A DNA stretch of 62,628 nucleotides from an uncultured Candidatus Saccharibacteria bacterium (GCA_964641545.1 CAZXLT010000004.1:1-62628); one strand, 5' to 3'. Numbered from the stretch's first letter, positions 48,479 through 62,628 are shown. The notes: generated by a model not told the origin, from the letters alone. Program-made: numbers and translations.

Positions 48479-50125
48479 TTAAGGTCTGGTTGCCATGTAG
48501 GCTTTATTTGAGGTCTTAAGGCCGGGGACCAGTGACTCCACAGCCGCCTGGCTGATGTTTTCGGTCCATGCATCAGTAGTTACCCAGCTATTTCTAAAGC
48601 CACCTCCACTTGGGTTACGTACACTCTTTTGTGCTTTACAGATGCCGTCTCCCGCAAAAGTATATCCTGCAAACGTCCAAAAAGTAGCTTTATTGTCTAT
48701 CGCCGGATATAGAATGGACACACAGTAACCCGTTTTCCCAGGAGTTATACCACCATCATTAGCTCCGAAAACAGGATTAGCACCGTTCCTTTCGAAGTCC
48801 AAACTAACTACGTATGCACGAGGTAAAACCGATATTTTAGTGGGATCTCCTTCTTGGAGTGTATTTACTGCCGCTGCAAAGTCGGCAAGTTGTTGGTCGC
48901 GTTGTCTTTGTTGTTCCTCAGCGCGCTCGACTCGTTGCCGTTCTTGCTCTTGTCGTATCGTTGCTACCATAGCGTCGGCATCGTTCTTGGCTGCAGCCTG
49001 GGCTGCAAGCTTAATGTGGTTCCATATAACATCGGTTACGATTCCGTTGTAACTGCCCTGCGGAAGCCCAGTAATAACACTGGTAACGTTGATGGTATAG
49101 CGTAGATAGTCGTCTAACGCAGCATCAAAGTTTGCATCGCTAAACTTGATCTGTGCTTTTACCGCTTCACGGTTGGCTGCTGGAGCTAACACGATTAGGT
49201 AGTATTTGAGCTGTTTGACACAGTCTCCCTTAGACCCGACCTTTAGTGGAGTTGTTGCACAGTCTACAGCCGGGGCAGGTGGTGTGGCAGGCGGTGTTGT
49301 TTTTGGAAGTGTGGTAACAGGAGTTTTAGGAGTTGCGGGTGGCGTCTTTGGAGTTGTTGATACGGCGGGCGGTACAATGCCCGTGCATTTATTTCCTCCG
49401 TTGTAGTAGGCAGTTGAGAACATGATTATGTCCCATAAACGTGGGGAAACTACATTGGCGTAGCCGGTAGACTTTGCTTCGTCACCCAGGTTGCCGGCTG
49501 CAACTGTCCAGGCTATGTATGAATTGGTGTTGTCGTCGAAATTCTTTCCGCCAGTAAGTGGTTGTTTGTTGTAGCACTTCTTTACTACGACATTCATTGC
49601 TGCATTAAGTAAGCTTACGCAGTCCCCGTTGCTTCCTGTGTGAAGATTCTGGTCTTTGCAGGCAACGGGATTATCGGCTGGCGCTGGGGTAGGGGCAGGC
49701 GCAGGTGTTGGTGTGGGTGGCGGTGCCGGTGGGTGAAGTTTGGCGTCTACAAAGTCTTTAAGCGTGTTATAGATACATGGAGTAACGCCGTTTGCGGGCA
49801 CATAGGTACCGCAGCCGTTAAATAGTCCAACATTATTAAGGTTGAGCAGTGTTTGGTTAAGCGTTCCATCAAACCCAGGGTTGCCGGCATCGTTGGCATT
49901 GGCGCTTACCGCAATGTTAGCGAGGTTCTTCACAATCTTTACGCAGTCGTGCGTCATAAAGACTTTTACGTTGCTATCCGTACAGGCGTCTGGTGTTGCA
50001 GCACTCGAAAAATTTAAAACGTAAATTCCAACACTGGCAACAACCGCGGTCGAAATAACCATCATAAACTTACTAAATCTGCTTGAAGCTCTTGAACGAA
50101 GGGTTTGTTTTTTCTTTTTGGGCAC
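48479..50125 (-). CDS. Secreted protein with peptidoglycan-binding-like repeats and Pro/Thr linkers
   Basis: N-terminal TM; LHTGSNGDCVSLL and LKVGSKGDCVKQLK resemble PG_binding_1 helices; Gln/Arg coiled coil. Confidence 0.6.
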   Translation of the reverse strand: MPKKKKQTLRSRASSRFSKFMMVISTAVVASVGIYVLNFSSAATPDACTDSNVKVFMTHDCVKIVKNLANIAVSANANDAGNPGFDGTLNQTLLNLNNVGLFNGCGTYVPANGVTPCIYNTLKDFVDAKLHPPAPPPTPTPAPAPTPAPADNPVACKDQNLHTGSNGDCVSLLNAAMNVVVKKCYNKQPLTGGKNFDDNTNSYIAWTVAAGNLGDEAKSTGYANVVSPRLWDIIMFSTAYYNGGNKCTGIVPPAVSTTPKTPPATPKTPVTTLPKTTPPATPPAPAVDCATTPLKVGSKGDCVKQLKYYLIVLAPAANREAVKAQIKFSDANFDAALDDYLRYTINVTSVITGLPQGSYNGIVTDVIWNHIKLAAQAAAKNDADAMVATIRQEQERQRVERAEEQQRQRDQQLADFAAAVNTLQEGDPTKISVLPRAYVVSLDFERNGANPVFGANDGGITPGKTGYCVSILYPAIDNKATFWTFAGYTFAGDGICKAQKSVRNPSGGGFRNSWVTTDAWTENISQAAVESLVPGLKTSNKAYMATRP

Positions 50126-50285
50126 GCTAGTAATACCTTTTTATTTTTTTATTCTTACCGTTATGATCCACCAATCAGAAATATTTGTCAAACCGCATGT
50201 GGATAAGTGACTAGCATTCTAGGCAAAAGTGTGGTATTGTAAAACTAAGCTAGAGTAATCGTGACTGACCGCTCTTCTCGTTGAT

Positions 50286-50317
50286 AACTCCCCGTGCATA
50301 AGGGGAGTTTCTTTTTT
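50286..50317 (+). terminator. Intrinsic terminator of a short intergenic transcript
   Basis: aactcccc/ggggagtt stem followed by TCTTTTTT. Confidence 0.7.
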
Positions 50318-50327
50318 ACCCCTGTTA

Positions 50328-50336
50328 TGCTATAAT
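50328..50336 (+). promoter_or_regulatory. Extended -10 promoter upstream of the structured leader and tRNA-Glu
   Basis: TGcTATAAT. Confidence 0.65.
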
Positions 50337-50475
50337 CAATCGGTATTTTCCCATGGGGTCCCCAAGTCGAGGGGATTCGACTTGGGGAGAGGAACTGGCT
50401 TGGTGGGTTTGCAAGTAGTGCCAAGCAAACTTGTTTTGTTGGCACTATGACAAACGCACCTTCACACGGTGACGA

Positions 50476-50550
50476 GGCCTCATCTTCTAACGGTTAGGAA
50501 TCCGGGTTTTCATCCCGGCAATAGGGGTTCGATTCCCCTTGAGGTCACCA
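50476..50550 (+). tRNA. tRNA-Glu (anticodon TTC)
   Basis: Acceptor GGCCTCA/TGAGGTC, anticodon arm CCGGG-TT TTC AT-CCCGG, T-arm GGTTCGATTCC, encoded CCA. Confidence 0.93.
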
Positions 50551-52225
50551 TAAGGGAATTATTAGCTCTAAGGAGCGCAAATATCGGATTCACCCCTGTA
50601 AAAAGGGGTGTTTTTTGTGTTCCAGAATTTATATCATCGTAACTGGGTGCTTTATCGAATAACGCGGCGAAAAACAGTGCTTTTTTAACCGGATCAATCT
50701 GTTTTAGTAATAATTCGTCGAGGTGTTCGACAAAATATTTGACGCGCGCCAGGACTCGGTCAATCGGAACGGGTTTCTTAGCCTCTAGTTCCACTTTCCG
50801 AGCCTCAAGCTCATTAACTTGCTGTTCGATCCTCATAAGATCCTCCTCCATGTATTTAATTGCTGTACTGCTTGAAAGCATTCTAAGTTTGTCTAACGCT
50901 AGTGTTGCTTGGCCTTGCAAATCAGAAACCTTGGCATCAATTGATTCAATTTGCATCTTGTATGATGCATTGGACTTCTCCCAAGATGCTTCAATGATCT
51001 TAAACAAGGCATCAAGCTTATCCGGTGCGATAGTTAAACCAGAAACAAACTCTGCAACCCTAGTTTCTAAATCTTCTTTAGTCACTCTGAAGTAGTGGCC
51101 ACGCTTGTTGCAGTGATATGCCGGATAGTATTTGCCACTCTTGCCCCGTGAGGCGCTGCCTAGCAGCGGTTTGTTACATTGTGGACACATAATGACCTTT
51201 CGGTATGCAAAGTCGCCGTTTCGACGACCCTTGTTTGCTAGATGTTCTGGAGGTGCCTTGTCGAATACGTAGACTTTGTTATTAACACCCTCTACGATTG
51301 TTCGTTTGCCACCGTTCGCTTTATTAAACGCTTCTACAGACACTAAACCTTTAAAGACACACTTAACCGGCTCGTTGTTAGTCCACTTTTCCATATTCAC
51401 ACCTGCATAAATAGGATTACGGACTAACCGCCATAAGTGCTTGGATGTCAGTTTTGTGCCACCTACTTTTTTAACAACTTTGCTCGTATCAGTCTTACTA
51501 CGTATGTATTTAATGCGACCCTGATATCCGCTCTCATTGAGCATCTTGGCTATTTGGCCATCACTATATTTGCCAAGTGCTCGGAGCTCAAACATACGAA
51601 TTATAAACTTAGATTCTTCAGGGTGAGGGACAAGGATTGTTCGTTTACCGTTTTGAGTGTCTATTTTTTCACTCATAAATCCAAAAGGCGCCTGTCGCAT
51701 CCAGTAACCCATTTGGGTGTAGCGGATTTCGGCACCGATCATACGACTCATAATATCTCGAAGTTCGTCTTTGGATCGTTCAGCTTCAAGAATCTCGGAC
51801 TTTTTACTAGGCGAGTACACACTCCACTTATACTCGAAGCCGAGGTGATCGAGTGTATTAACTGTCTGTGAACTTATTACACCGTAAATGTCTATGAGAC
51901 GTACATTGTTTGCCTCTAACTGGTTTTTAAGAAGGTCATACGACAGTGAACCACCACGGGTAAATCGATCGATCGACTTGATAATAAATAAATCTATTCC
52001 ATTCTTTGGGTCTACGCAGTAATCGATAGCTTCTTGCATCGGTTGCTGTTCCTTACTGGCTGACTCTAGGAATACAAAGAATTTTTTAATTGTGATGCCT
52101 TTATTCTCGGCAAATCGCTCAGCTTGTTCTTTTTGGGCTTCTGGGGAATCACCATCAGTACCTTGCTTTGTAGTCGATACACGAATAGCGACAACGGCAT
52201 TCGTGCCTTTTACGCTGTCTTGCAT
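50510..52225 (-). CDS. Large serine recombinase (resolvase + recombinase + zinc-ribbon + coiled coil)
   Basis: AIRVSTTKQ (catalytic Ser), SIDRFTR, APFGF, NPIYAG, CPQC...YHC; the C-terminus reads antisense through tRNA-Glu. Confidence 0.9.
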   Translation of the reverse strand: MQDSVKGTNAVVAIRVSTTKQGTDGDSPEAQKEQAERFAENKGITIKKFFVFLESASKEQQPMQEAIDYCVDPKNGIDLFIIKSIDRFTRGGSLSYDLLKNQLEANNVRLIDIYGVISSQTVNTLDHLGFEYKWSVYSPSKKSEILEAERSKDELRDIMSRMIGAEIRYTQMGYWMRQAPFGFMSEKIDTQNGKRTILVPHPEESKFIIRMFELRALGKYSDGQIAKMLNESGYQGRIKYIRSKTDTSKVVKKVGGTKLTSKHLWRLVRNPIYAGVNMEKWTNNEPVKCVFKGLVSVEAFNKANGGKRTIVEGVNNKVYVFDKAPPEHLANKGRRNGDFAYRKVIMCPQCNKPLLGSASRGKSGKYYPAYHCNKRGHYFRVTKEDLETRVAEFVSGLTIAPDKLDALFKIIEASWEKSNASYKMQIESIDAKVSDLQGQATLALDKLRMLSSSTAIKYMEEDLMRIEQQVNELEARKVELEAKKPVPIDRVLARVKYFVEHLDELLLKQIDPVKKALFFAALFDKAPSYDDINSGTQKTPLFTGVNPIFALLRANNSLMVTSRGIEPLLPG

Positions 52226-52368
52226 CGTTTCTTCCTCCGCCTGGTATTAAACTCAGACGCTACAAGCTCATACAAAAGATCAGCCACCACCCGCAATTTG
52301 TCTGGCTCTGAAAGTTTACAGCCTTCTGGTTGCTTATCTATGTTCTTTGAACCCTTGATTCTCCCCAT
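52210..52368 (-). CDS. Small basic protein coupled to the recombinase (not in the ORF track)
   Basis: 52 aa MGRIKGSKNIDKQPEG...RRRKKRCKTA*; overlaps the recombinase start. Confidence 0.6.
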   Translation of the reverse strand: MGRIKGSKNIDKQPEGCKLSEPDKLRVVADLLYELVASEFNTRRRKKRCKTA

Positions 52369-52566
52369 ATTCACCCTCTGAGACACTATCCTTATATAAG
52401 ATAGTATACTATACGTAATATGGATAGTTCAATACTATTAAGACCGTATTATTGTCAACATATTATAAAACTACGGTGTTTTATATAATCTTATGTATTA
52501 ACAGATTAAAATCAGTATTTATTCCTCTTTCTATTATATATAATATAAAGATCTTAGAGAATATAG

Positions 52567-53361
52567 GTGGGAGAAAAGCCACGAGAAGTACGAGCCAAAG
52601 CCATGCCAAGAAAATCACAATTCAATACCCTCAATGATAAACAGATACATTTGTTAAAACTTACATACAAATTTCGCTTTGTCACAGCTCCATTACTAGC
52701 CAAGTACAAAGACTTAAAGAGTCGGAGTTCAATGTATACGACATTAGAGCGTTTAGCTGAGCAAGAGTACCTAGGTAAGTTCAAAACAAAAAACGAGGGC
52801 TTTCAAAATAAAGGCACTCGTTACTACCTCACCACAAAAGGACTCAGTTATCTCTCCTCAAACCACGGCATTGGCGCCCATATGGCAAAAGCTATTGGCG
52901 GCAACCGAAACGTTACTGAACGCTTCAAAGACCAGCACATTGCCGACTTACGCCTCTACCTTCAAATTGAAGACACTTATCCAGGTCAATTTGAAATCTA
53001 CACCCGCACAGAAATTGCTGGCCAGAAACACTTTCCTACACCACTACCAGACCTATACTTAATGAGAAGTAAGCCAGTAGACGATAAGCTTAATGAATTC
53101 TTTTTGTTTGATATAACCTCTAAGCCATTTTACGAGTTCAAAAAGGATTTTCCAAAACTAATCGAGCACCTCGACACGGAAGTTTGGGAGAAGAAGACTG
53201 GCCGACCTTATCCTGGAGTTTTATTAGTATGTGCAGACTCAAGGCAAGAGTTCGTAGTACAAAAATATGTCTCTGTAACCCTAGAAAATACTGGTATCGA
53301 AGAACTAAAAGTTCAGACGTTTTCTTCACTAACTAATTTAACAAATGTGAAATATCTATAA
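52567..53361 (+). CDS. Replication-relaxation family protein
   Basis: LLKLTYKFRFVTAPLLAKY..LERLAEQEYL wHTH-like N-terminus; PLPDLYL nuclease-like core; the start may be ATG 52603. Confidence 0.75.
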   Translation: MGEKPREVRAKAMPRKSQFNTLNDKQIHLLKLTYKFRFVTAPLLAKYKDLKSRSSMYTTLERLAEQEYLGKFKTKNEGFQNKGTRYYLTTKGLSYLSSNHGIGAHMAKAIGGNRNVTERFKDQHIADLRLYLQIEDTYPGQFEIYTRTEIAGQKHFPTPLPDLYLMRSKPVDDKLNEFFLFDITSKPFYEFKKDFPKLIEHLDTEVWEKKTGRPYPGVLLVCADSRQEFVVQKYVSVTLENTGIEELKVQTFSSLTNLTNVKYL

Positions 53362-53368
53362 GTAACAA

Positions 53369-54529
53369 TCAAACTTTGTTTTTAAATGTAGATCGGTAAA
53401 TGAAATATACTGGCAACAAACAGATATTACAGACCAATATGGATACACTCGGACTAAATCGGTCGGCAAGATAACCCGCAAAAACTAGGAAGACTGCTAA
53501 AAGTACACTAGTTACAAGTGAGTTGAGCGAGTCCATTGTTGCCCTTTGAGCGTCGGTGAACTCCTGATGTATTAGGTGCTGTTTAGCAGTATCTGTTGGT
53601 CCATAGGGAGCGCCGTGGAGCATCATGACAAACGGTGATGCAGCCGACGACAGGATCAAGGCGACAAACGAAACGATCCGCGAGAAGATCTCGCCGGCTA
53701 GGATAATAGTCGACGACTTGAATCGCTTCATAAACCGGTCACTGTTCTTGAAGCCAATGGTGCTCCAAATGTAGTTAGCAGAAAGCAAGCTGCCAACCCA
53801 AGAAAGTGGTACATATTGTCGGTAATATGCGGGCATCATGTTCCAGGACGCCCCACCAACACTTCCACTCAGGATTGAAGCAATGCTCAACATTCGCAAG
53901 TGTGTATTCTTTTTGTAGTATCGGTAAACATCGCCTAGGTGACTAAACACGTTGCCAGAAAGTGGTGAATGCCTGGGAGGCTCAATCATAGTGAATGTCA
54001 CCAGCACTGCCAGTGCCTGTGGCACGACCGAGATCCAAAGCACCAAGATGTAGGAGATCGAAGCCAACATCGTTCCTGCAATGGCCGAAATAATGCCCCC
54101 AACCTCAAGAGCAATGTTAGTCTTGCTGTAGTGACTATGAAAGTCATCTTTTACTCCAGCAGACCGAGCCGAGTCGTAGATGAGCGCGTTATTGTTACCA
54201 CTAAACAAGGCGAAGCTTAAACCCTGCATCGCTGCACCAACCAGCAGGATCCAGTAATTGGTTGTCGTGGCATAGATTAGCAGCCCAGCTAAGCTAGCCA
54301 GGGCACCGGCTTGCATACTAACAACTCGGCCAATACGATCAGACACAACACCGGTTGGAATCTCTAATACCGCCTGAGAAATTTGGACGAACGCCCAAAC
54401 ACTAGTACCTTTAGCGAATGAATTTAAGACATGCGAAAGATACAGCACCAGCACAATGTAGTAGGGCTGTACATTTGAAAGAAAGGTAAATCGGAACAAT
54501 GCCCCCATATTGTGTTTCAGTAAGTTCAT
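53369..54529 (-). CDS. MFS transporter
   Basis: LEIPTGVVSDRIGR motif A, FALFSGNNNALIYDS, RATMDS; about 12 TM. Confidence 0.9.
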   Translation of the reverse strand: MNLLKHNMGALFRFTFLSNVQPYYIVLVLYLSHVLNSFAKGTSVWAFVQISQAVLEIPTGVVSDRIGRVVSMQAGALASLAGLLIYATTTNYWILLVGAAMQGLSFALFSGNNNALIYDSARSAGVKDDFHSHYSKTNIALEVGGIISAIAGTMLASISYILVLWISVVPQALAVLVTFTMIEPPRHSPLSGNVFSHLGDVYRYYKKNTHLRMLSIASILSGSVGGASWNMMPAYYRQYVPLSWVGSLLSANYIWSTIGFKNSDRFMKRFKSSTIILAGEIFSRIVSFVALILSSAASPFVMMLHGAPYGPTDTAKQHLIHQEFTDAQRATMDSLNSLVTSVLLAVFLVFAGYLADRFSPSVSILVCNICLLPVYFIYRSTFKNKV

Positions 54530-55989
54530 AGTTTTAGTTCCTTGGTCGGTTTCAATTTCTTAGCAAAGTATTTGTCATGCGATGCAAACAAGATTGCACC
54601 GCGGTACTGCTGCAAGGCTGTTTCTATCTGTTCCCTTGTTGGAATATCCAGATGGTTGGTTGGCTCGTCCAGAATCAACAAATGGTGTGAGGCAAGCAGT
54701 AACTTTGCAAATCCAAGCTTTGCCTGCTGGCCACGAGATAGTTCGCTGACCTGTTTGTTCAGATCGTTTTTGGTAAGACCTAGGCTGCGGGCTTCGCGAA
54801 AGATGTTGGTCATCTGTGCTTCAGTTGCAGTTAAGTTCTCTAGCCCTGTCGAATCATGGTCTAGACCATCTACATCCTGAGAGAAATAGCCAACACTAAT
54901 ACCAGTTCCAAAAGTGACTTCACCTCTGTCGGCTTGGTTTCTACCTGCAGCAATTGTTAGTAGGGTTGTCTTGCCACTGCCGTTCTGTCCTTGGGTGTGA
55001 ATACGTTCACCCCCTCGAACTTCAAGGTCAACGTTCGAGAGCACTGGCTCCGGAAATCCCTTATATATTCCGTTTAATCGCAATACCAACTTATTACTAT
55101 CTACTTCACCACCAAGTACAATACGGTAGTCTTTGGCGAATTCGGGTCTTTCTATCTCGTCTAGTTGGCCTAGTCGCTTTTCTAATGCTCGTGCTTGCTG
55201 GCCAAACTTGTTAGTTACTCTGTTTCTAAAGAAATCTCGTTGGTACTTGTCGCCGTCGGATCGTTTGATGTGTTCGTGGGTGTGCTTTCCTTTTTCTCTT
55301 TGATCTCGGATTGCTTTGGTTAGTTGGTTGCGCTCATCGACATTCTGTTGGTAGCGTGCTCGTACGGCTGCTTCTTCTAGCTCTTTCTGTTCACGGTAGA
55401 AATCGTAATCTCCTCCATACTGGGTTAGCCTGCCGTTATGTAGCTCAGCAATTTTAGTTGCCGTGCTGTTAACAAACGTCCGGTCGTGACTAACTAACAA
55501 CACAGATCCGTCGTAAGTACTGATGAAGCCCTCTAGCCAATCTAGACCAGCGGCATCTAAGTTATTGGTAGGCTCGTCCAGAAGCAACAAAGACGGTTCG
55601 GGGTCTTGAGCCAAGACCACAGCAAAAGCTAGCCGAGTCTTTTGGCCGCCGCTTAATGTGCTTACGGCAGTACTCTGTTTTTTAGAACCTAGGCCAATCC
55701 TTTCTAGGGCGTAGTTAATCTGCCACGACTGAGCCGTAGCCGAAAAGCTTTCAGCGATTGTTTTCCCAAGTACTGCTTCCTGTGGGACATAGCCAATAAC
55801 ACCAGTGGCTTGAACGCTTCCGGAATCTGGCTTTAGTACTCCTCTTAGAATCTCCAATAGAGTTGTCTTACCAGCTCCGTTTTCGCCAATTAGAGCAACC
55901 ACCTCACCATGGTTAATGGCCAAGTTGACATCCTCAAGGACTGATTTGTTCGGGAATGATTTGTATATATGACGTAAGTTAAATGCCAT
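54526..55989 (-). CDS. ABC-F family ATPase (ribosome-associated; possible ribosomal protection protein)
   Basis: Two ABC cassettes (GENGAGKTT/LSGGQ/LLDEPTNNLD; GQNGSGKTT/LSRGQ/LDEPTNHLD), no TM, long interdomain linker; SD GGAGG before ATG 55989. Confidence 0.9.
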   Translation of the reverse strand: MAFNLRHIYKSFPNKSVLEDVNLAINHGEVVALIGENGAGKTTLLEILRGVLKPDSGSVQATGVIGYVPQEAVLGKTIAESFSATAQSWQINYALERIGLGSKKQSTAVSTLSGGQKTRLAFAVVLAQDPEPSLLLLDEPTNNLDAAGLDWLEGFISTYDGSVLLVSHDRTFVNSTATKIAELHNGRLTQYGGDYDFYREQKELEEAAVRARYQQNVDERNQLTKAIRDQREKGKHTHEHIKRSDGDKYQRDFFRNRVTNKFGQQARALEKRLGQLDEIERPEFAKDYRIVLGGEVDSNKLVLRLNGIYKGFPEPVLSNVDLEVRGGERIHTQGQNGSGKTTLLTIAAGRNQADRGEVTFGTGISVGYFSQDVDGLDHDSTGLENLTATEAQMTNIFREARSLGLTKNDLNKQVSELSRGQQAKLGFAKLLLASHHLLILDEPTNHLDIPTREQIETALQQYRGAILFASHDKYFAKKLKPTKELKL

Positions 55990-56006
55990 TACTTTATCCT
56001 CCAAAT

Positions 56007-56149
56007 AGAAAAACCGAGCAGGCAGACAAATGTCACGCACGCTCGGTTTTCAGAAGTTAGGTAATGAAATCAAATCAATAGCAAAGCTACGCCGTTAGCG
56101 TGACATCTTTAGCTGTTGATTAGATCTATCATTGGTATACAAACTCCTT
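56007..56149 (-). promoter_or_regulatory. Ribosome-dependent transcription attenuator of the ABC-F gene
   Basis: SD AAGGAG (56149-56144), leader ORF MIDLINS* (56132-56109), antiterminator 9-bp pair 56098-56106/56030-56038, terminator stem 56041-56050/56010-56019 with U-tract. Confidence 0.75.
56109..56132 (-). CDS. Leader peptide MIDLINS
   Basis: ATG ATA GAT CTA ATC AAC AGC TAA downstream of an SD, upstream of the attenuator hairpins. Confidence 0.55.
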   Translation of the reverse strand: MIDLINS

Positions 56150-56161
56150 TAAGTTTCCGCA

Positions 56162-56190
56162 ATAATAGCATAACCGATACTGCTTGTCAA
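56162..56190 (-). promoter_or_regulatory. sigma70 promoter of the ABC-F/MFS operon
   Basis: TTGACA-17 bp-TATTAT with extended TG. Confidence 0.85.
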
Positions 56191-56232
56191 CTATTTAGCT
56201 GGGCAACTATACCTTGAAGTACATACCGATAT

Positions 56233-56272
56233 CTTGTCTACTTGATCAGCGCTAAGTCAGGTTCTTTACTCT
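56233..56272 (-). repeat. Diverged copy of the 3' end of the VirD4-like gene (second copy at 59544-59583)
   Basis: 36/40 identity; both copies encode SKEPDLALIK*. Confidence 0.88.
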
Positions 56273-56497
56273 ACTTTGTTTTTGTTCCTCGATATATTGC
56301 TCATATAAAAAACCAGCAAAGTCACGTGCACTTCTTTTTATAGCCAATTTTTCCTTAGCTTTTTTGAGAGATTCTTTTGCCATTAAATCTAAGGTTTCAA
56401 TTACGTCAAAAATATCTTCATCGGTCATACCCAATGCTGAAGAACCTAATATTTCACGAGCTTCTTCTACTGATATCATCGGCTTAATATAGCTCAT
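56252..56497 (-). CDS. Small hypothetical protein
   Basis: 81 aa, MISVEEAREILG..MTDEDI pattern; last gene of the cargo operon. Confidence 0.7.
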   Translation of the reverse strand: MSYIKPMISVEEAREILGSSALGMTDEDIFDVIETLDLMAKESLKKAKEKLAIKRSARDFAGFLYEQYIEEQKQSRVKNLT

Positions 56498-57012
56498 TAA
56501 TCTATTCTTATTACTCCAATTAGAGCCTGAGTTTTTTTCGTTGGGTCTTTAAAGGTAAAGCCATCTTCTTTAATGTCGTCACGCCCCTCATAGCGATGAA
56601 GCACTTCTTGCATTTGATTGGCGTCGTAAATGGTAAGTATATCTATCCTCACTGCGCGACCATGGAAACCTAACGCACTATGGTAAAAACCATATACTAC
56701 GTCGGCAAATATAGAGCTACCCTCGGTGACGGTATGTGGAAAGGCGAAAAGATCAATGTGTTTGCCTTCAACATTTTCATAGCGATCACCTTTGCGAGTT
56801 GAATCATATCGATCAGTACCGGTTGTTTTAATGATATTGATCAACTCATCCACTGTCTTGCCGGTGTGTTCTGAGGAAGCTACGCCACGAACGAGAATTG
56901 ATTTGCCCATAAAGTTTTCTTTTATTACTGCGTCCACGATTTTACCCAGCGCCTCATGGTCGGGAACAATATCAACTGTGTATTGTGGCAAATCCAAGTT
57001 AAGAAGCTTCAT
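56497..57012 (-). CDS. Hypothetical protein
   Basis: 171-aa ORF in a tightly coupled operon. Confidence 0.75.
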   Translation of the reverse strand: MKLLNLDLPQYTVDIVPDHEALGKIVDAVIKENFMGKSILVRGVASSEHTGKTVDELINIIKTTGTDRYDSTRKGDRYENVEGKHIDLFAFPHTVTEGSSIFADVVYGFYHSALGFHGRAVRIDILTIYDANQMQEVLHRYEGRDDIKEDGFTFKDPTKKTQALIGVIRID

Positions 57013-57496
57013 ACGACAACTCTTGAATCTGTTTAGCTAAGTCTTTAACCGATCGATTACCATCAATAACTAGATCAATAAGCCCGCCCTTTTGTAGGCG
57101 TTTGAAAGTATCAAGCTGAAGTTTCAGCCATGGAGATGCGTCCTGATAGTTTTCAATACTCATTCGATTGTTATTTCTCTCGGCTAGCTGTTCGATCGTG
57201 AGATCTAAGAGAATAATTTTAAATCCTTTATCTCGCGCCTCTTTGATCAGCTCGTCAGGTACATAGCTTGCAAAGTACACTACTTGGGGTCGAGAAATGA
57301 TTTCTTTGGTTGTCTGGGGAACAAGAATCTCATTCTTCAACTTATCATCAGGCCAGACATCATTGTTGGCCTTCATAACTTCCTCATCAGTCTCAGCAAT
57401 GTTGAGCTTAGTATGTTCGCGTAAATACCTCATAAGTGTGGATTTGCCACCAGCAGAGGGGGCCAAGATAAGTAGTTTTTTTGTCTTGATCATCAA
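56999..57496 (-). CDS. Small P-loop kinase-like protein
   Basis: LILAPSAGGKST Walker A, IILLD..IEQLAERN, LVIDGNRSV. Confidence 0.75.
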   Translation of the reverse strand: MMIKTKKLLILAPSAGGKSTLMRYLREHTKLNIAETDEEVMKANNDVWPDDKLKNEILVPQTTKEIISRPQVVYFASYVPDELIKEARDKGFKIILLDLTIEQLAERNNNRMSIENYQDASPWLKLQLDTFKRLQKGGLIDLVIDGNRSVKDLAKQIQELSYEAS

Positions 57497-57500
57497 AGTC

Positions 57501-57893
57501 TTAATCTTTCCTAATTATCGGTATGGCTGACTCGGGTATTTTACGCACTTTTACGGTCTTTTCGTCCTGAATGGATTGTTTCATTAAGCGATGTAAACCA
57601 TCAAGAATAAGCCACCGTTCTTTCCACCACATAATGTCGATTGGAAAGGTAACATCTGACCGCATAGTGCGCTCGTATTCCTCGGGATACAAGTCGGGAT
57701 GATCGATTACTTCACTTGGCTTAACATCGTAGTATCCATCAGGCTTCGACCATATAAAGGGGATATCAAAGTGCCAGGTCAAGTCACTAATTGGCATTTC
57801 TTCGGCTGGGACATCCAATTTCCATACTTTTCGTTCATCCCAACTAAAATCAAAACCTACTTCCTTAATAATTTCTGGTAACTCATGGCTCAT
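57501..57893 (-). CDS. Hypothetical protein with ParB/sulfiredoxin-like motif
   Basis: FPIDI..WLILDGLHRL resembles the ParB-N DGHHR motif. Confidence 0.55.
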   Translation of the reverse strand: MSHELPEIIKEVGFDFSWDERKVWKLDVPAEEMPISDLTWHFDIPFIWSKPDGYYDVKPSEVIDHPDLYPEEYERTMRSDVTFPIDIMWWKERWLILDGLHRLMKQSIQDEKTVKVRKIPESAIPIIRKD

Positions 57894-58273
57894 AGAACTT
57901 TGTCTAGGAACTGTTTGAGTGCTTCCATGTCCTCTTTTGTATGATCGTAAAAGTATGTTGTAATACCTATTGACTCAGCAGTCTTAGCCGCTTCAGCATT
58001 ATGTTCAAAATAGACTACATCTTCTGGCTTGAGACTGTATTTTTCTAGAAGGATTTTAAAGTATTCTGGGGCGGTCTTCTCAGGATTATGTTTCAGTGTA
58101 AAGACCTCATAAGGTACCTGGTCTAGTCTAAAATGCTTGAACTGTTCATCATTTGCGCCAGTTAAAACTATCTTTTTATTAGGGTATGTCTCTAGAAGTT
58201 TGTACATAGATTCAAGTATGCTACCATCTTCTAGCACTAATCCATTTATTGCATCTACGAGTATTGTTTTCAT
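57890..58273 (-). CDS. HAD-superfamily hydrolase-like protein
   Basis: MKTILVDAIN motif I, VLTG, KHNPEK, VVYFEHN..A..AESIGI. Confidence 0.75.
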   Translation of the reverse strand: MKTILVDAINGLVLEDGSILESMYKLLETYPNKKIVLTGANDEQFKHFRLDQVPYEVFTLKHNPEKTAPEYFKILLEKYSLKPEDVVYFEHNAEAAKTAESIGITTYFYDHTKEDMEALKQFLDKVL

Positions 58274-58857
58274 TTTTGCTCCTTTACCGTAATACCACTC
58301 TTATCAAGTAGTTTGTAGTTATCGTTACTTGTTTCAAGAATAGCGTATGCACAATCGTCAACGTCAATCTCACCTAATTTCAAGACATCTCTAAATATAA
58401 GGCGTATTGGTCCACCGTGAGTGACTACGGCAATTTTGTCAGCTTGTTCACGCCTCAAAGATTCTAAAGCATTTGTTATACGTTTCTGGAATGGTTCGTA
58501 TTCCTCAGCACCCTCAACGGCGGCGTGTACATTCTTTAATATCTCAACTTGATCCGGATAAGTTTTTAAAGCCTCATCCTTTGTCATACCAGTTAAGATT
58601 CCATAGCCATTGCGTTCTCTAAAGTCTTCAACAGTTCTAGTAGCTAGCCCTAGCTTTTTGGCAATCAATGTAGCCGTTTCTTGCGCGCGAATTCGTGGGC
58701 TAGCCAATAGTAAGTCAATACCTTTGTCTGCTAACACATCAGCAAGTTGTGAAGATTGTTGTTTTCCTAAATCCGTTAGATGATCATCATAATCACCACC
58801 ATAACGATTTTCTAAGTCACCAGTTGTTTGACCATGTCTCGTTAGATATATAATCAT
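58270..58857 (-). CDS. Histidine phosphatase family protein
   Basis: YLTRHGQT, ASPRIRAQET, RERNGYG, VVTHGGPIR. Confidence 0.92.
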   Translation of the reverse strand: MIIYLTRHGQTTGDLENRYGGDYDDHLTDLGKQQSSQLADVLADKGIDLLLASPRIRAQETATLIAKKLGLATRTVEDFRERNGYGILTGMTKDEALKTYPDQVEILKNVHAAVEGAEEYEPFQKRITNALESLRREQADKIAVVTHGGPIRLIFRDVLKLGEIDVDDCAYAILETSNDNYKLLDKSGITVKEQK

Positions 58858-59507
58858 TTCTCGTCCCTCAATTTTTTATACAGATTTTTAAGATCCTCAA
58901 TGATTGTTTTGTAATCATGGGCATCAACATATTCCCAAGCTTTAACATAGCTGCCACTGCCCGCATATTCTTTAACCTCAGCTTTATCGCGCTCGTAACG
59001 TTCTGGGTCTTTCATGATATCTAGCCATAAATACTTGCACATTGCATGGACAGGTATATGAACTAGTGTTTTTAGATCGTGCTCTTTGCCATACATTTTT
59101 GCCCAGTCTTCTGAGATAAAGTACTTAGGTGCCTCTTCGTACTCTCTGAAGACACTGTTGTCGGTGAGGATAACGTGGGAGAGTTCGTGGGCTAAAACAT
59201 CCACAAACCGTTCGGGCTTGCCTCTAAAATTCATAATAACTGGATTAGATTGAGGTATGAATAACGGCACGCAGGTTACATCAATAACGGGTAGGTAAAA
59301 ATCTACACCAAGCATAGCCTGTAGAGCCTCAAGAATCTGTTTTTCTTTTGCATTCCAAGCCTGCCAGTACTGGTATGTTTTATTGAAGTAGTATCTATCG
59401 TCTTCTAGCTTGAATTTGAACTTCTCCGCTAGCTCAGGCGACATTGAATGTGCTAAAAGTTGCCCATAGCTAATTCGTATTTCAGGAATTTTTGTATCGT
59501 TACTCAT
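58854..59507 (-). CDS. Hypothetical protein with HExxH motif
   Basis: VLAHELSHVIL; TATAAT 7 nt upstream of the ATG, first gene of the cargo operon. Confidence 0.7.
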   Translation of the reverse strand: MSNDTKIPEIRISYGQLLAHSMSPELAEKFKFKLEDDRYYFNKTYQYWQAWNAKEKQILEALQAMLGVDFYLPVIDVTCVPLFIPQSNPVIMNFRGKPERFVDVLAHELSHVILTDNSVFREYEEAPKYFISEDWAKMYGKEHDLKTLVHIPVHAMCKYLWLDIMKDPERYERDKAEVKEYAGSGSYVKAWEYVDAHDYKTIIEDLKNLYKKLRDEK

Positions 59508-59548
59508 ATCTGTAATTATACCTCAGAATAATCTTTTCGGTAACTTGT

Positions 59549-62155
59549 CTACTTGATCAGTGCCAAGTCTGGTTCTTTGCTCTGTCGCTTAGTTGCATTC
59601 GTCTTTTTTACCAGGGTTAGTTCGTCTTTTGGTTTCATTGGTTTTTCTGGCTGAACTTTAATTCCATATTCCTTGCGAGAGTGGTTAATTGCAGCATTAG
59701 CCACCTCACCACTTCCTTCACTATCAAGAAGGACTGTAACGCCGGACATTGGCTCCTGGGCATTAACAGCAGCAATTCTCGCATAGAAACTATACGCCGG
59801 TAAGTTGGCAATTTCTCCTTGCTCCAAATATCTATTGAACAATGGCAATATCAAACGTTCGTCTGACGGACTTCCTGATCGAAAACATATAACCGTCCCG
59901 ACGTTCGCCAGAATAATATCAACAAGTCTTTGCTGATCCTGCTGACTGGTAGATTGTTCTGCCATGGTCAGGTATAACTTATACTTCCTAGCTTCAGACA
60001 GCATCTGTACAAAACTCATCGTCGCAAAGTTTTGAAACTCATCCACATATAAGAAGAATGGCTGGCGACCGGACTGTTTTTGTCGTGCTCGACGAAGTGC
60101 GGCCACCTGCAACTTTGCTAATACAGTCGTACCAAATAACGCTGAGGTATCTTCGCCAAGTAAACCTTTCGAAAAGTTACAAATTAAGATCTTGCCCGAG
60201 TCGAGGATGTTATCAAAGTCGATGGTCGACTTTTCTTGCTCAAGGATTCGCTTTGCAGATGCAGAGAATAGAAACCGGCCAATCTTAGCTGTAATACCGG
60301 CTGACATTTTGACTCTTTGAAACTCACCAGCCTTACCTAGCTCGTTACTCCAAAAGTTCTTTAAGTCTTCGTCCTCTAAGTTTTTTACCGTGTTTCGACG
60401 AAACTTCGCGTCGTTAAGCAGTCGGAAAATAGTAAAGAGTGTAGCGCCTTCTAGCGTTAATGCGGTTTGGATTGAGTTACGTAAAACATACTCAATTCGG
60501 TGGCCTCCACTATCGTCTTCGGAGAATATCTTTCGTAGTACGGAAATCGTTGACTCGGTTATTAAGTCTTTCTCGCGAAGTAACTCGTCGCCCGTTAGGC
60601 TAGGATCAAGTTCAAGTAAGTTAACGCCAATTGGGTGAGCAAGATCATCGGGGTTCAAGTAGATGACGTCCTTGATTCGTTCCTTGGGCAGGTGGTGCAG
60701 GATCGTTTCCGCCAAGTCACCGTGAGGATCAAGCACTGCAAGACCTTTGCCGCTATTAATATCCTGCATGATTCCGAATAGCAGCATTGTTGTCTTACCA
60801 TTACCTGTACCACCAATAATGTACACATGGCGTTCTCGCTCAGCCAACGATAGCCCAACAGGAGTAACACTACCATGGTGTTGGTTTTCTCCCAGTACAA
60901 TATCCAGCTTTGCACCATTTTTGAGTGAAACAGGTGCGGGCAGTGTTTTACTGAGAGACTTCACAACGTTTTCAGTCTTCGCACCGATTGAGTGTGGGAA
61001 GTGGAATAAACTGGACACTTCGCTAGCGGCTAAAATGTTAGAGTTCTTTGTAAGCGTTTCGGGCATACGATTCACAAAACTAAAATGTTGGAGCTGTCGC
61101 ATGCGCTTGGTACGGACACGTTTAATTTCCAGTGCCTGATATTTTGCCACAGAATAAGATGACAGTGCCGACACAACGCCATGCAATCTCTGCTTCATTT
61201 CGGCGCTACTATTAACTTTTATTGCTGCTCGGATTTCAACACGGAACAATGGTTGGCTTAGTTTATGGTGAATTGACTCGATCAGCTCTTGCTCAAACTT
61301 GCTTATAGTTCGAGCTGGCTTCACACCTTGGATGACTTGTTTCTGGTGGTACAGATCGCGTTGCAACATCTGGTTGCCATCATTCGATGCCCCGTGATTC
61401 ATATAGGTAATAGTGTTTGTAATGGCAGATAAAATATTACCGATGGATTTTATGACTAGTCCACCAACAGATTTCCGGGATGAGTTATGTAGATGTGCTC
61501 TTACATCTTCGTTGGTTAGGATCTTGTTGCCTAGAGTGTACGCTTCAGCAACTTTGACAGGAACTGCTACGAGTTGGAAAGCCATTAGCTCTTCTGGTTC
61601 AAGCTGAGTCATAGTATTGGCAAGATATGCAATCGGGTCATGAGCAGACAAACTATCTACTTCGTGCAATGGATAGGCGAAATGTTCCTTTTGTCTAAAT
61701 GTGACTGTTTTAGCTGAATTAAGATTCGCTACATAGTCCTCTGTTTTTCTCACCTTAACGTCAGGTAGGTAGGCGTGAATAGTGTGCTTAAAAACTGTAG
61801 CCTGATCATCCGGGACACGTGCCAAAAAGCGAATACCATGCTCCCGCGTAGAAACAATCTCAAGTGACACGACTGAGTCACGACGTAGTAATCGATCAAG
61901 GAATGGTTTACTTGAGCCAAGACCATGAAGTACTGCAAACAACTCTTGGGTTGCTTGTGGTGTTCTGTCATCGAAAGCTGGTGGTGTTAGCTCAAAGATC
62001 GTGTATGACTCATGGAAAATGTGCCGAATATTGAGAATCCTCACGATGCCTTTGGTCACCCACGCAATGATAAAGATCAGCAGCAACATTAATCCTATCC
62101 AAGGCAAAAGTCCTGCAAAATTCTTTAGCCAATCAACTATGTGAAGCGGATTCAT
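59549..62155 (-). CDS. VirD4/TraG/HerA-like coupling ATPase with N-terminal TM
   Basis: RERHVYIIGGTGNGKTT, LDPHGDLA, KILICNFSKG, FFLYVDEFQNF, EARKYKL, LANVGTVICFR. Confidence 0.88.
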   Translation of the reverse strand: MNPLHIVDWLKNFAGLLPWIGLMLLLIFIIAWVTKGIVRILNIRHIFHESYTIFELTPPAFDDRTPQATQELFAVLHGLGSSKPFLDRLLRRDSVVSLEIVSTREHGIRFLARVPDDQATVFKHTIHAYLPDVKVRKTEDYVANLNSAKTVTFRQKEHFAYPLHEVDSLSAHDPIAYLANTMTQLEPEELMAFQLVAVPVKVAEAYTLGNKILTNEDVRAHLHNSSRKSVGGLVIKSIGNILSAITNTITYMNHGASNDGNQMLQRDLYHQKQVIQGVKPARTISKFEQELIESIHHKLSQPLFRVEIRAAIKVNSSAEMKQRLHGVVSALSSYSVAKYQALEIKRVRTKRMRQLQHFSFVNRMPETLTKNSNILAASEVSSLFHFPHSIGAKTENVVKSLSKTLPAPVSLKNGAKLDIVLGENQHHGSVTPVGLSLAERERHVYIIGGTGNGKTTMLLFGIMQDINSGKGLAVLDPHGDLAETILHHLPKERIKDVIYLNPDDLAHPIGVNLLELDPSLTGDELLREKDLITESTISVLRKIFSEDDSGGHRIEYVLRNSIQTALTLEGATLFTIFRLLNDAKFRRNTVKNLEDEDLKNFWSNELGKAGEFQRVKMSAGITAKIGRFLFSASAKRILEQEKSTIDFDNILDSGKILICNFSKGLLGEDTSALFGTTVLAKLQVAALRRARQKQSGRQPFFLYVDEFQNFATMSFVQMLSEARKYKLYLTMAEQSTSQQDQQRLVDIILANVGTVICFRSGSPSDERLILPLFNRYLEQGEIANLPAYSFYARIAAVNAQEPMSGVTVLLDSEGSGEVANAAINHSRKEYGIKVQPEKPMKPKDELTLVKKTNATKRQSKEPDLALIK

Positions 62156-62622
62156 TGACTAGCTCCAAGTGCTGGCTTGGCATTCAGATCTAGCCAAGGC
62201 ACGATTTGTTGTTCATGGATGAAGTTATACTTTGTCGCGTCAGATGCCTTTAGAGTGCGACTACTCTGTATATCCCAGCCGACCCAGTTCATCTCCGAAA
62301 TGGTCCATTCTCCAGTAATAGGATTAACACTTTCTACATATGCCACGTGTCCTTCTTTGCCGGCAGTCGTCTGCATTATTGCGCCCGCGCTCGGTGTATG
62401 ATCTACGAGATAATTCATTTTCTGAGCCCGTTCTGCCCAAGTGTTAGCATTACCCCAAGTGTTTGGGATCGCACTACCGACTTGTAGTCGTCGAAGTGCC
62501 GCCCAGTAAGTGCACCAACCATAGTCATATGTCACCTGCGCATTGGCTGGCTGATCAAAAAGGCTGAAGACGCTAAGGGCGTCAACATTGGCAACTGAAA
62601 TGAAAACTACAATAGGCATCAT
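62152..62622 (-). CDS. CHAP-domain cell-wall hydrolase (may extend past the window edge)
   Basis: YGWCTYW catalytic Cys, WGNANTW, GHVAYVE catalytic His, ISEMN. Confidence 0.88.
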   Translation of the reverse strand: MMPIVVFISVANVDALSVFSLFDQPANAQVTYDYGWCTYWAALRRLQVGSAIPNTWGNANTWAERAQKMNYLVDHTPSAGAIMQTTAGKEGHVAYVESVNPITGEWTISEMNWVGWDIQSSRTLKASDATKYNFIHEQQIVPWLDLNAKPALGASQ

Positions 62623-62628
62623 AGTCAG

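Follow-up and report, generated by a model that had tools for sequence, protein, structure and literature searches.

In the window analyzed here (62,628 nt of an uncultured Candidatus Saccharibacteria bacterium, GCA_964641545.1 CAZXLT010000004.1:1-62628), the gene for a VirD4-like coupling protein of a putative integrative and conjugative element (ICE) is followed by a slot of variable cargo, and the element in its present form is likely to be a mosaic of ICE sisters, with a cassette of seven small genes gained behind virD4 together with an older joint between the last of these genes, g81, and the tail of another virD4. The evidence consists of a direct repeat of the virD4 3' end, empty and alternative alleles of the slot in sister elements, a second relic in one of these, mosaic breakpoints, linkage of g81-type genes to recombinase genes and the distribution of a 21-nt motif. 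The source genome, placed in Candidatus Saccharimonadales by the names that homologues bear, is a metagenome-assembled genome (MAG) of 934 kb in 29 contigs.

The cassette lies between two copies of a virD4 3' end. A scan of window positions 50000-62628 (12.6 kb) returned 56227-56272 versus 59538-59583 (46 nt, 87%) as the longest direct repeat, and the core of this repeat, 56233-56272 versus 59544-59583, matched at 36/40 nt, as an earlier reading of the window (hereafter the sequence-only reading) had noted. The probability of such a match by chance in a 62-kb window is far below 1e-6 (binomial estimate), and a third copy was not found anywhere in the MAG with up to nine mismatches allowed. Translation of both 40-mers gave SKEPDLALIK* and confirmed that the four differing sites (AGC/AGT, CCA/CCT, TTG/TTA and GCA/GCG) are all synonymous in the virD4 frame, where 20 of 99 possible single changes would be synonymous (P of four in four approximately 0.002). 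In the overlapping frame of g81, the same differences read V>A, L>Q and stop>W, which argues that this small open reading frame (ORF) is not the source of constraint on the 40-mer and disposes of an alternative raised at the outset. Judged from its sequence, the left copy is the non-functional end of a virD4 gene from a sister element. The relic begins about 12 nt further in than the 40-mer, at CAAAAACAAAGT (up to window position 56284), and its virD4 frame is broken upstream of the 40-mer by a 5-nt insertion, AGAGT. The start of the relic, QKQS, encoded by CAAAAACAAAG, fits the VirD4 tail of contig L037, KTTQKQSKEPDLALIK, and is the sole pointer to a tail of that type, since the relic differs at 4/40 sites in each comparison with the virD4 tails of L035, L036, L037 and the window itself. 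A target-site duplication would consist of short identical repeats; these copies differ at 4/40 sites and by the 5-nt indel. The view that the left copy is a relic of a distinct virD4-like gene and not such a duplication was upheld, a foreign virD4 3' end, about 20% diverged, being found beside the cassette.

Six further sequences, 94-96% identical, share the 90% cluster of this VirD4, and their contigs show four states of the slot. The arrangement in L031, L059, L060 and L064 is identical to that of the window. In L037 the slot is empty, the virD4 stop being followed at once by ACAAGATATCGGTATGTACTTCAAGGTATAGTTGCCCAG..., which is the DNA behind the window's relic (132/134 nt identical) and runs on into the leader of an ABC-F gene. 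L032, L033 and L034 carry genes for an Asp/Glu racemase, a 246-aa protein, a PheRS-alpha-like protein and an AlaRS-like protein, and no ABC-F/MFS genes. L036 carries a stacked slot with genes for a 2-hydroxyacid dehydrogenase and two HAD hydrolases, a homologue of the cassette gene g171, g81, a second relic, a spacer, the 21-nt motif (21-mer) and a block with peptidase S51. L065 represents a fifth context, in which an 88%-identical homologue of the first cassette gene, g217, follows the 21-mer behind a VirD4 of about 57% identity, and different genes come next. In all close alleles the first cargo gene starts exactly 42 nt past the virD4 stop. Alleles without 56273-59583, alternative cargo starting right after virD4 (three other sets at the same point) and a cargo block ending in a relic (the second relic of L036, between two stacked blocks) were thus all present among sister elements, as expected if the slot is a site of cargo exchange.

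Comparison of the window with the empty allele located the foreign DNA. Mismatches between the window and L037 amounted to 2.1% in virD4 nt 1-2261 and 20.5% in nt 2262-2607 (the last 346 nt), and divergence at third codon positions rose from 4.6% to 34.5% between these segments (Fisher p 1e-18), so that a relaxation of constraint on the C-terminal linker cannot by itself be the cause. Identity to L037 was 99.4% over 473 nt upstream of virD4 and 98.5% in the DNA behind the relic. Since both flanks are L037-like, the window from about 59890 down to the relic is a foreign stretch, and because the divergence of about 20% runs from virD4 nt approximately 2262 to the stop, the cassette came together with a foreign virD4 3' end. 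As virD4 is not recipient-like up to the repeat, neither a target-site duplication nor a single crossover in the 40-mer accounts for the arrangement, with the proviso that L037 is the only empty allele available. Homology common to the relic and the resident tail extends over at most about 56 nt, including TAGACAAGATA. Of the original proposal that the cassette was gained by recombination between sister elements at the conserved gene end, the first part stands and the second is refined, the left breakpoint relative to the empty allele lying about 300 nt inside virD4.

The second relic, in L036, matches the virD4 end of the window at 30/40 nt and reads S*VPDLALTK*, with an in-frame stop; it is thus more decayed than the first. 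Ahead of each relic lies one and the same stretch, ...GAGCAATATATCGAGGAACAAAAA, with which g81 ends. Window-type slots and L036 have 338 nt in common (89% identity), a segment that comprises the final 68 nt of g171, g81 and the relic, and differ in the flanking blocks; g81 of L036 is 93% identical to that of the window, contains an in-frame stop and ends in a different frame and place. The presence of the same g81 3' end before both relics indicates that the joint of g81 to the tail arose once and, hence, that stacking would draw on an existing scar for its short arm of homology and not leave a new relic at every event. Carriage of this joint into different contexts by crossovers in or next to the tail marks the tail as a recurrent recombination point.

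The origin of the joint is suggested by the usual surroundings of g81-type genes. Although g81 itself is rare (two clusters among 5.8 billion proteins), relatives were found by profile search in 37/251 Saccharimonadales genomes, and at 23 of 29 fetched loci a gene for a serine recombinase of about 486 aa starts 30-120 nt downstream on the same strand. Recombinases of this second type are used by some members of the ICE family, and g81-like proteins may be recombinase accessory or directionality factors. In the window, the virD4 tail sits where the recombinase gene would be expected, and for this reason the joint is read as a deletion joint. Formed by deletion or illegitimate joining where two elements were co-resident or lay in tandem, it would have removed a recombinase module and most of the second element, sparing about 42 nt at the end of its virD4. 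Co-residence is plausible in view of genomes with up to seven matches to this type of VirD4 (complete or partial), and a tandem-deletion origin of the joint is put forward with moderate confidence.

Replacement by two crossovers is the simplest reading of the window's arrangement. The recipient, which would have contributed the flanks, would have been an element with virD4 joined directly to an attenuator-controlled ABC-F/MFS block, and the incoming DNA, from a diverged sister, would have comprised the last 350 nt or so of virD4, a 41-nt spacer with the promoter/ATG motif and seven cargo genes, of which g81 is the last. The left crossover would have been ordinary homologous recombination inside virD4, whereas the right crossover would have used the short virD4-tail homology already present behind g81 in the incoming DNA, so that one tail was kept by the functional virD4 and the other stayed behind as a scar. 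Repeated events of this kind would swap cargo blocks or stack them in tandem, each with its own promoter.

Several results weigh against this reading. No relics were found at 20 loci of the distant family, up to 14 kb downstream of virD4, where the sole significant match was the 21-mer; L037, a contig of 3.4 kb, is the only empty-site contig known; no donor came to light in which the virD4 3' end of the window stands in other surroundings; 6/29 g81-like loci, including the three closest full-length homologues, are followed by genes other than recombinase genes; no contig of this element family shows g81 followed by a recombinase gene; and no relaxase reached a curated threshold, the Replic_Relax match of the 264-aa gene g264 included. 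The description of the slot as a cargo-swapping and stacking hotspot is supported by the close alleles, with their empty and alternative cargo and the L036 relic; in view of the 20 distant loci, relic-mediated stacking may be peculiar to this clade. With a single empty-site contig and no donor, the direction and order of events, as well as the role of the tail as homology arm, are what we infer from these alleles. Look-ups with the ABC-F and MFS proteins gave no further empty-site contigs, a scan of JGI metagenome contigs for tail plus motif returned only the already known L036 contig, and IMG/VR viral contigs contained no match to the tail and motif patterns. At the right edge of the slot, a search for mirror-image relics of the 3' end of g264 likewise found none.

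The boundary mark that recurs in distant family members is the 21-nt promoter/ATG motif. A TATAAT box placed 7 nt ahead of an ATG has the layout of a leaderless transcript, and in the MAG as a whole -10-like hexamers were 3-5 times enriched 6-9 nt before ORF-opening ATGs compared with other spacings, a pattern that suggests leaderless transcription of many genes in this Saccharibacterium. From these features, the 21-mer would be the promoter and start of the cargo slot. A generic genome-wide promoter was rejected as an explanation of the motif, which is unique in this genome; GGTATAAT was not enriched. Every close allele has the 21-mer behind virD4. In elements with a VirD4 of 46-47% identity, its first bases are the last virD4 codons and stop (...LEV*), and in L065, L069 and L070 it follows the stop of a virD4 with the tail DFDVPEVNA*. 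Two of these contigs, L069 and L070, are from one MAG (SRP342105_co1_34) and have the same VirD4 tail and motif with different cargo; the VirD4 match of L070 is in two pieces (residues 54-723 and 729-835) in different frames, and the gene may be frameshifted.

A dedicated capture site was considered in view of this distribution. In such a system, comparable to an integron, a site-specific recombinase would insert circular cassettes at the virD4 tail, the 21-mer or both, with foreign ATGs landing behind a leaderless promoter, the repeats corresponding to attL/attR-type sites and g81-type proteins and serine recombinases forming the machinery. Block boundaries are sharp, since elements with different cargo cease to be homologous precisely at the ATGA of the 21-mer, and this exactness of the fusions is what lends site-specific capture its remaining probability. 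The exact motif, present at L036:9219 and 12252 and in L066 and L067-L073, marks the start of cargo blocks in elements whose VirD4 proteins are only 46-58% identical, was present in 8/401 genomes of the order with zero control matches and in only 8 contigs, all from Saccharibacteria, among 185,579 species, and was fused at its ATG to at least nine different genes. It was also noted at internal block boundaries (L036 +3057, G008 +5263 and G010 +743), and g81, beside the relic, belongs to a recombinase-linked family. On the other hand, domain scans of the cassette detected no recombinase, and no IntI-type tyrosine recombinase was present in any ORF between 50.5 and 62.6 kb; relative to the empty allele the left breakpoint lies well upstream of the repeat; the relic of L036 is decayed; tail and spacer fold no better than shuffled sequences (z -0.7 to +0.35), with no folded attC-type site; the ABC-F block joins other elements without tail or motif; and a leaderless promoter and start would suffice to explain the motif. 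Capture of this kind is accordingly viewed as unlikely.

A circle carrying the cassette and a virD4-end copy of about 40-60 nt, integrated by a single homologous (Campbell-type) crossover in the resident tail, would duplicate the tail and thus flank the insert with direct repeats. The two copies are unlike at all variable sites, as in recombination of donor with recipient, and a stacked donor like L036 could release such a circle via its two tails. The 300 nt before the tail are, however, the part of virD4 diverged from L037 by about 20%, with the rest about 98-99% identical, an objection valid only if L037 represents the recipient; with this proviso, a single crossover of this type is considered very unlikely. 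Selection for a present role of the left copy, which could supply g81 with its C-terminal end and stop codon or act in regulation or termination before the ABC-F block, would agree with the ends of g81 inside the relic in both known cases and with the identity of the relic in all window-type assemblies. It is highly improbable given the non-synonymous differences in the g81 frame, stop-to-Trp among them, the different frame and place of the g81 end and the internal stop in L036, the failure of a search of the repeat for structured RNA or a terminator, and the occurrence of the ABC-F block in other elements without relic sequence. Chance similarity or an assembly artefact, for which only the division of the MAG into 29 contigs and of the element over two of them might speak, has a negligible probability, the 36/40 match being far beyond chance and the identical arrangement being shared by six or more further contigs, which come from two projects and were built with two assemblers, including the independent assemblies Logan SRR29931264-69 and ENA ERZ27258528.

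The host element has the anatomy of an ICE of about 23.6 kb, comprising a type IV secretion system (T4SS), VirD4, variable cargo, a relaxase-like gene, a large serine recombinase and a tRNA-Glu gene with a 19-nt flanking repeat. On the minus strand, from 62628 to 50476, the order is CHAP hydrolase, VirD4, seven small genes, relic, ABC-F/MFS, a 264-aa gene, an ORF of 52-58 aa, recombinase and tRNA-Glu (Table 1). The window ends in the CHAP gene, and virD4 is the last backbone gene ahead of the cargo slot. The rest of the element was found on L031, a contig 99.8% identical to the window, with genes for a pilin, TrbL-like, PrgI-like, TraC-like and VirB4-like proteins, a DNA methylase and a helicase. 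Between contigs C4 and C8 the MAG lacks the T4SS core, approximately 4.7 kb, and the methylase/helicase end of the element is on C8. Combination of the window and L031 thus gives a conjugative T4SS with both a VirB4 ATPase and a coupling protein. At one edge of the element is the recombinase gene, which overlaps the tRNA-Glu gene on the opposite strand, and attachment-type repeats flank the element at tRNA-Glu: the last 19 nt of this gene recur in the same orientation on C8, beyond the helicase and methylase genes, as a single match (E 5e-4). This direct repeat probably marks the two ends of the element, which is delimited on this basis at about 23.6 kb. VirD4 of this type is patchily distributed among related genomes, with several copies in some, while a paralogue of about 34% identity is present in every genome. 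Together, the T4SS with VirD4, the recombinase, the relaxase-like gene, the tRNA repeat and the patchy distribution fit an ICE, for which transfer is predicted and the relaxase is weakly supported. In many sister elements a homologue of g264 separates the cargo from the recombinase gene, and homology with L032 picks up again inside the 3' end of g264. Its family match makes g264 a candidate relaxase, one that might escape the usual schemes of relaxase typing.

Table 1. Positions of features of the element, its cargo slot and the virD4-end repeat in the window
Feature	Position	Strand	Evidence or remark
virD4-like type IV coupling protein, 868 aa	59549..62155	-	Pfam T4SS-DNA_transf, TrwB_AAD_bind, TraG-D_C
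Approximate left recombination breakpoint inside virD4	59858..59894	.	gene nt ~2262-2298; mismatch positions, sliding identity
Right repeat copy, working virD4 3' end (SKEPDLALIK*)	59544..59583	-	stop at 59549-59551
21-nt motif TGAGGTATAATTACAGATATG	59505..59525	-	-10-like TATAAT, 7 nt, ATG of g217; putative leaderless promoter
g217, first cassette gene, 217 aa, HExxH motif	58854..59507	-	no family match; weak IrrE-like PDB match, E 0.06
g195, histidine phosphatase superfamily (branch 1)	58270..58857	-	Pfam His_Phos_1, E 3e-40
g127, HAD-IA-like small hydrolase (weak)	57890..58273	-	NCBIfam TIGR01509, E 2e-5, below cut-off
g130	57501..57893	-	no family match
g165, P-loop kinase-like	56999..57496	-	weak AAA_18 / nucleotide-kinase matches
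g171, member of a large conserved Saccharibacteria family	56497..57012	-	280 clusters
g81, small ORF, last codons and stop inside relic	56252..56497	-	normal family partner downstream is a large serine recombinase; none here
Putative relic of sister virD4 3' end	56238..56284	-	reads QKQS-[5-nt insertion]-KEPDLALIK*; left copy 56233-56272 within/next to it
Degenerate virD4-downstream intergenic piece ACAAGATATCGG...AGGTATAGTT	56191..56237	-	identical to DNA after virD4 stop in empty-site allele
Control region of second cargo block	55990..56190	-	promoter TTGACA-17-TATTAT 56162-56190; leader MIDLINS* 56109-56132; hairpins and terminator 56010-56050
ABC-F ribosomal-protection-type ATPase, 487 aa	54526..55989	-	NCBIfam NF000355, 409 bits, cut-off 380
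MFS transporter, 386 aa, same operon as ABC-F	53369..54529	-	Pfam MFS_1
g264, 264 aa, convergent backbone gene closing cargo slot	52567..53361	+	Pfam Replic_Relax, E 8e-5, 23.3 bits, cut-off 25.3
g52, small ORF overlapping recombinase gene start	52210..52386	-	ORF call
Large serine recombinase, 571 aa, integration module	50510..52225	-	Pfam Resolvase and Recombinase (and weak Zn_ribbon_recom)
tRNA-Glu	50476..50550	+	last 19 nt 50532-50550 repeated at G000 contig C8:6790-6808

Among the cassette genes, the family of g171 has invariant His/Asp residues and includes chromosomal copies without g81, and the L036 copy is 40% identical to that of the window. An AlphaFold2 (AF2) model of g171 reached a predicted local distance difference test score (pLDDT) of 92.8 yet gave no significant PDB fold match and no gain in function assignment. 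PADLOC returned no defence-system match for the cassette. The g81-like family has the signature ISxxEARxILG...TLDxLAK, and homology of g81 to the element's own small ORF g52 was not seen. Three N-termini encoded after recombinase-free g81-like loci appeared PHP-like or SIR2-like by eye.

The second cargo block begins with a leader in which a Shine-Dalgarno sequence, a near-consensus promoter, mutually exclusive hairpins and a terminator can be read, features predicted to form a leader-peptide attenuator as in resistance-type ABC-F genes. The ABC-F protein exceeded the cut-off of the curated ribosomal-protection model, with scores for the specific Vga, Msr, Lsa and Sal models below theirs. The ABC-F and MFS proteins were 83-93% identical in elements whose VirD4 is only 46% identical, which indicates that cargo blocks move between diverged backbones; g217 behind the more distant VirD4 of L065 is a second such case. 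The common left edge of the ABC-F/MFS block in other elements is the -35 box, and elsewhere the block follows unrelated genes.

Comparable mosaics are known. ICEs of the SXT/R391 family reportedly have hotspots in variable regions and form hybrids through recombination between sister elements in tandem (Wozniak et al. 2009; Garriss et al. 2009). Like these, the present element has a conserved conjugation backbone, fixed intergenic slots with variable cargo, mosaicism from related co-resident elements and resistance-type genes in the cargo. In contrast with SXT/R391, it belongs to Saccharibacteria of the candidate phyla radiation (CPR), has another type of T4SS, a serine instead of a tyrosine integrase and a slot directly behind the coupling-protein gene; its block boundaries are marked by a gene-end scar and the 21-nt leaderless promoter/ATG, and Bet/Exo-type recombination genes were not seen. 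Accretion of integrative elements reportedly occurs in streptococci among ICESt1/ICESt3, cis-mobilizable elements (CIMEs) and integrative and mobilizable elements (IMEs) (Pavlovic et al. 2004; Bellanger et al. 2014). Tandem or nested fusion, decaying internal integration modules and orphan remnants are points of resemblance, the last comparable to g81 without a recombinase, whereas the scars of the streptococcal elements are att sites from site-specific recombination and the scar in the window is the 3' end of a conjugation gene at a joint of deletion or illegitimate appearance. Integron cassette arrays are similar with respect to a promoter-proximal insertion point, tandem stacking and short repeats at block boundaries, and differ in that the window has no IntI-type recombinase and no folded attC, carries multi-gene operons with their own promoters and shows a breakpoint inside the neighbouring gene. 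In naturally transformable bacteria, homology-facilitated illegitimate (short-arm) recombination has reportedly been observed (de Vries and Wackernagel 2002; Prudhomme et al. 2002); similarly, one long anchor (virD4 and T4SS genes) and a very short arm (the tail of at most about 56 nt) would have brought in kilobases here.

Tn5397 is a Firmicutes-type (MPF-FATA) ICE with a large serine recombinase, and the present element resembles ICEs of this type in its VirB4, type IV coupling protein (T4CP), CHAP hydrolase, pilin-like proteins and use of a large serine recombinase as integrase. According to a survey of T4SSs (PMC12102498), monoderm-type systems occur throughout Patescibacteria; a T4CP gene lay close to virB4 in only 148 cases, relaxases were scarce, and the systems were suggested to serve mostly functions other than conjugation. 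Unlike that general picture, virB4 and the T4CP gene are adjacent here and are accompanied by a recombinase, att repeats and swapped cargo, and on these grounds its behaviour resembles that of a mobile element. Literature search turned up no account of the family to which it belongs.

These findings represent a known process, ICE mosaicism, in a well-documented example from a little-studied phylum and with a new boundary motif; the mechanism itself is not new. They indicate that ICE mosaicism operates as a route of gene flow in Saccharibacteria, in which a resistance-type ABC-F/MFS block, its resistance role being predicted, is common to diverged backbones. Saccharibacteria and other CPR bacteria are hard to manipulate, and the element is delimitable and apparently mobile, with a defined slot, natural empty, swapped and stacked alleles and a compact promoter-plus-start motif. 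The serine recombinase with its tRNA-Glu site, the cargo slot and the 21-mer are thus candidate parts for genetic tools in these organisms.

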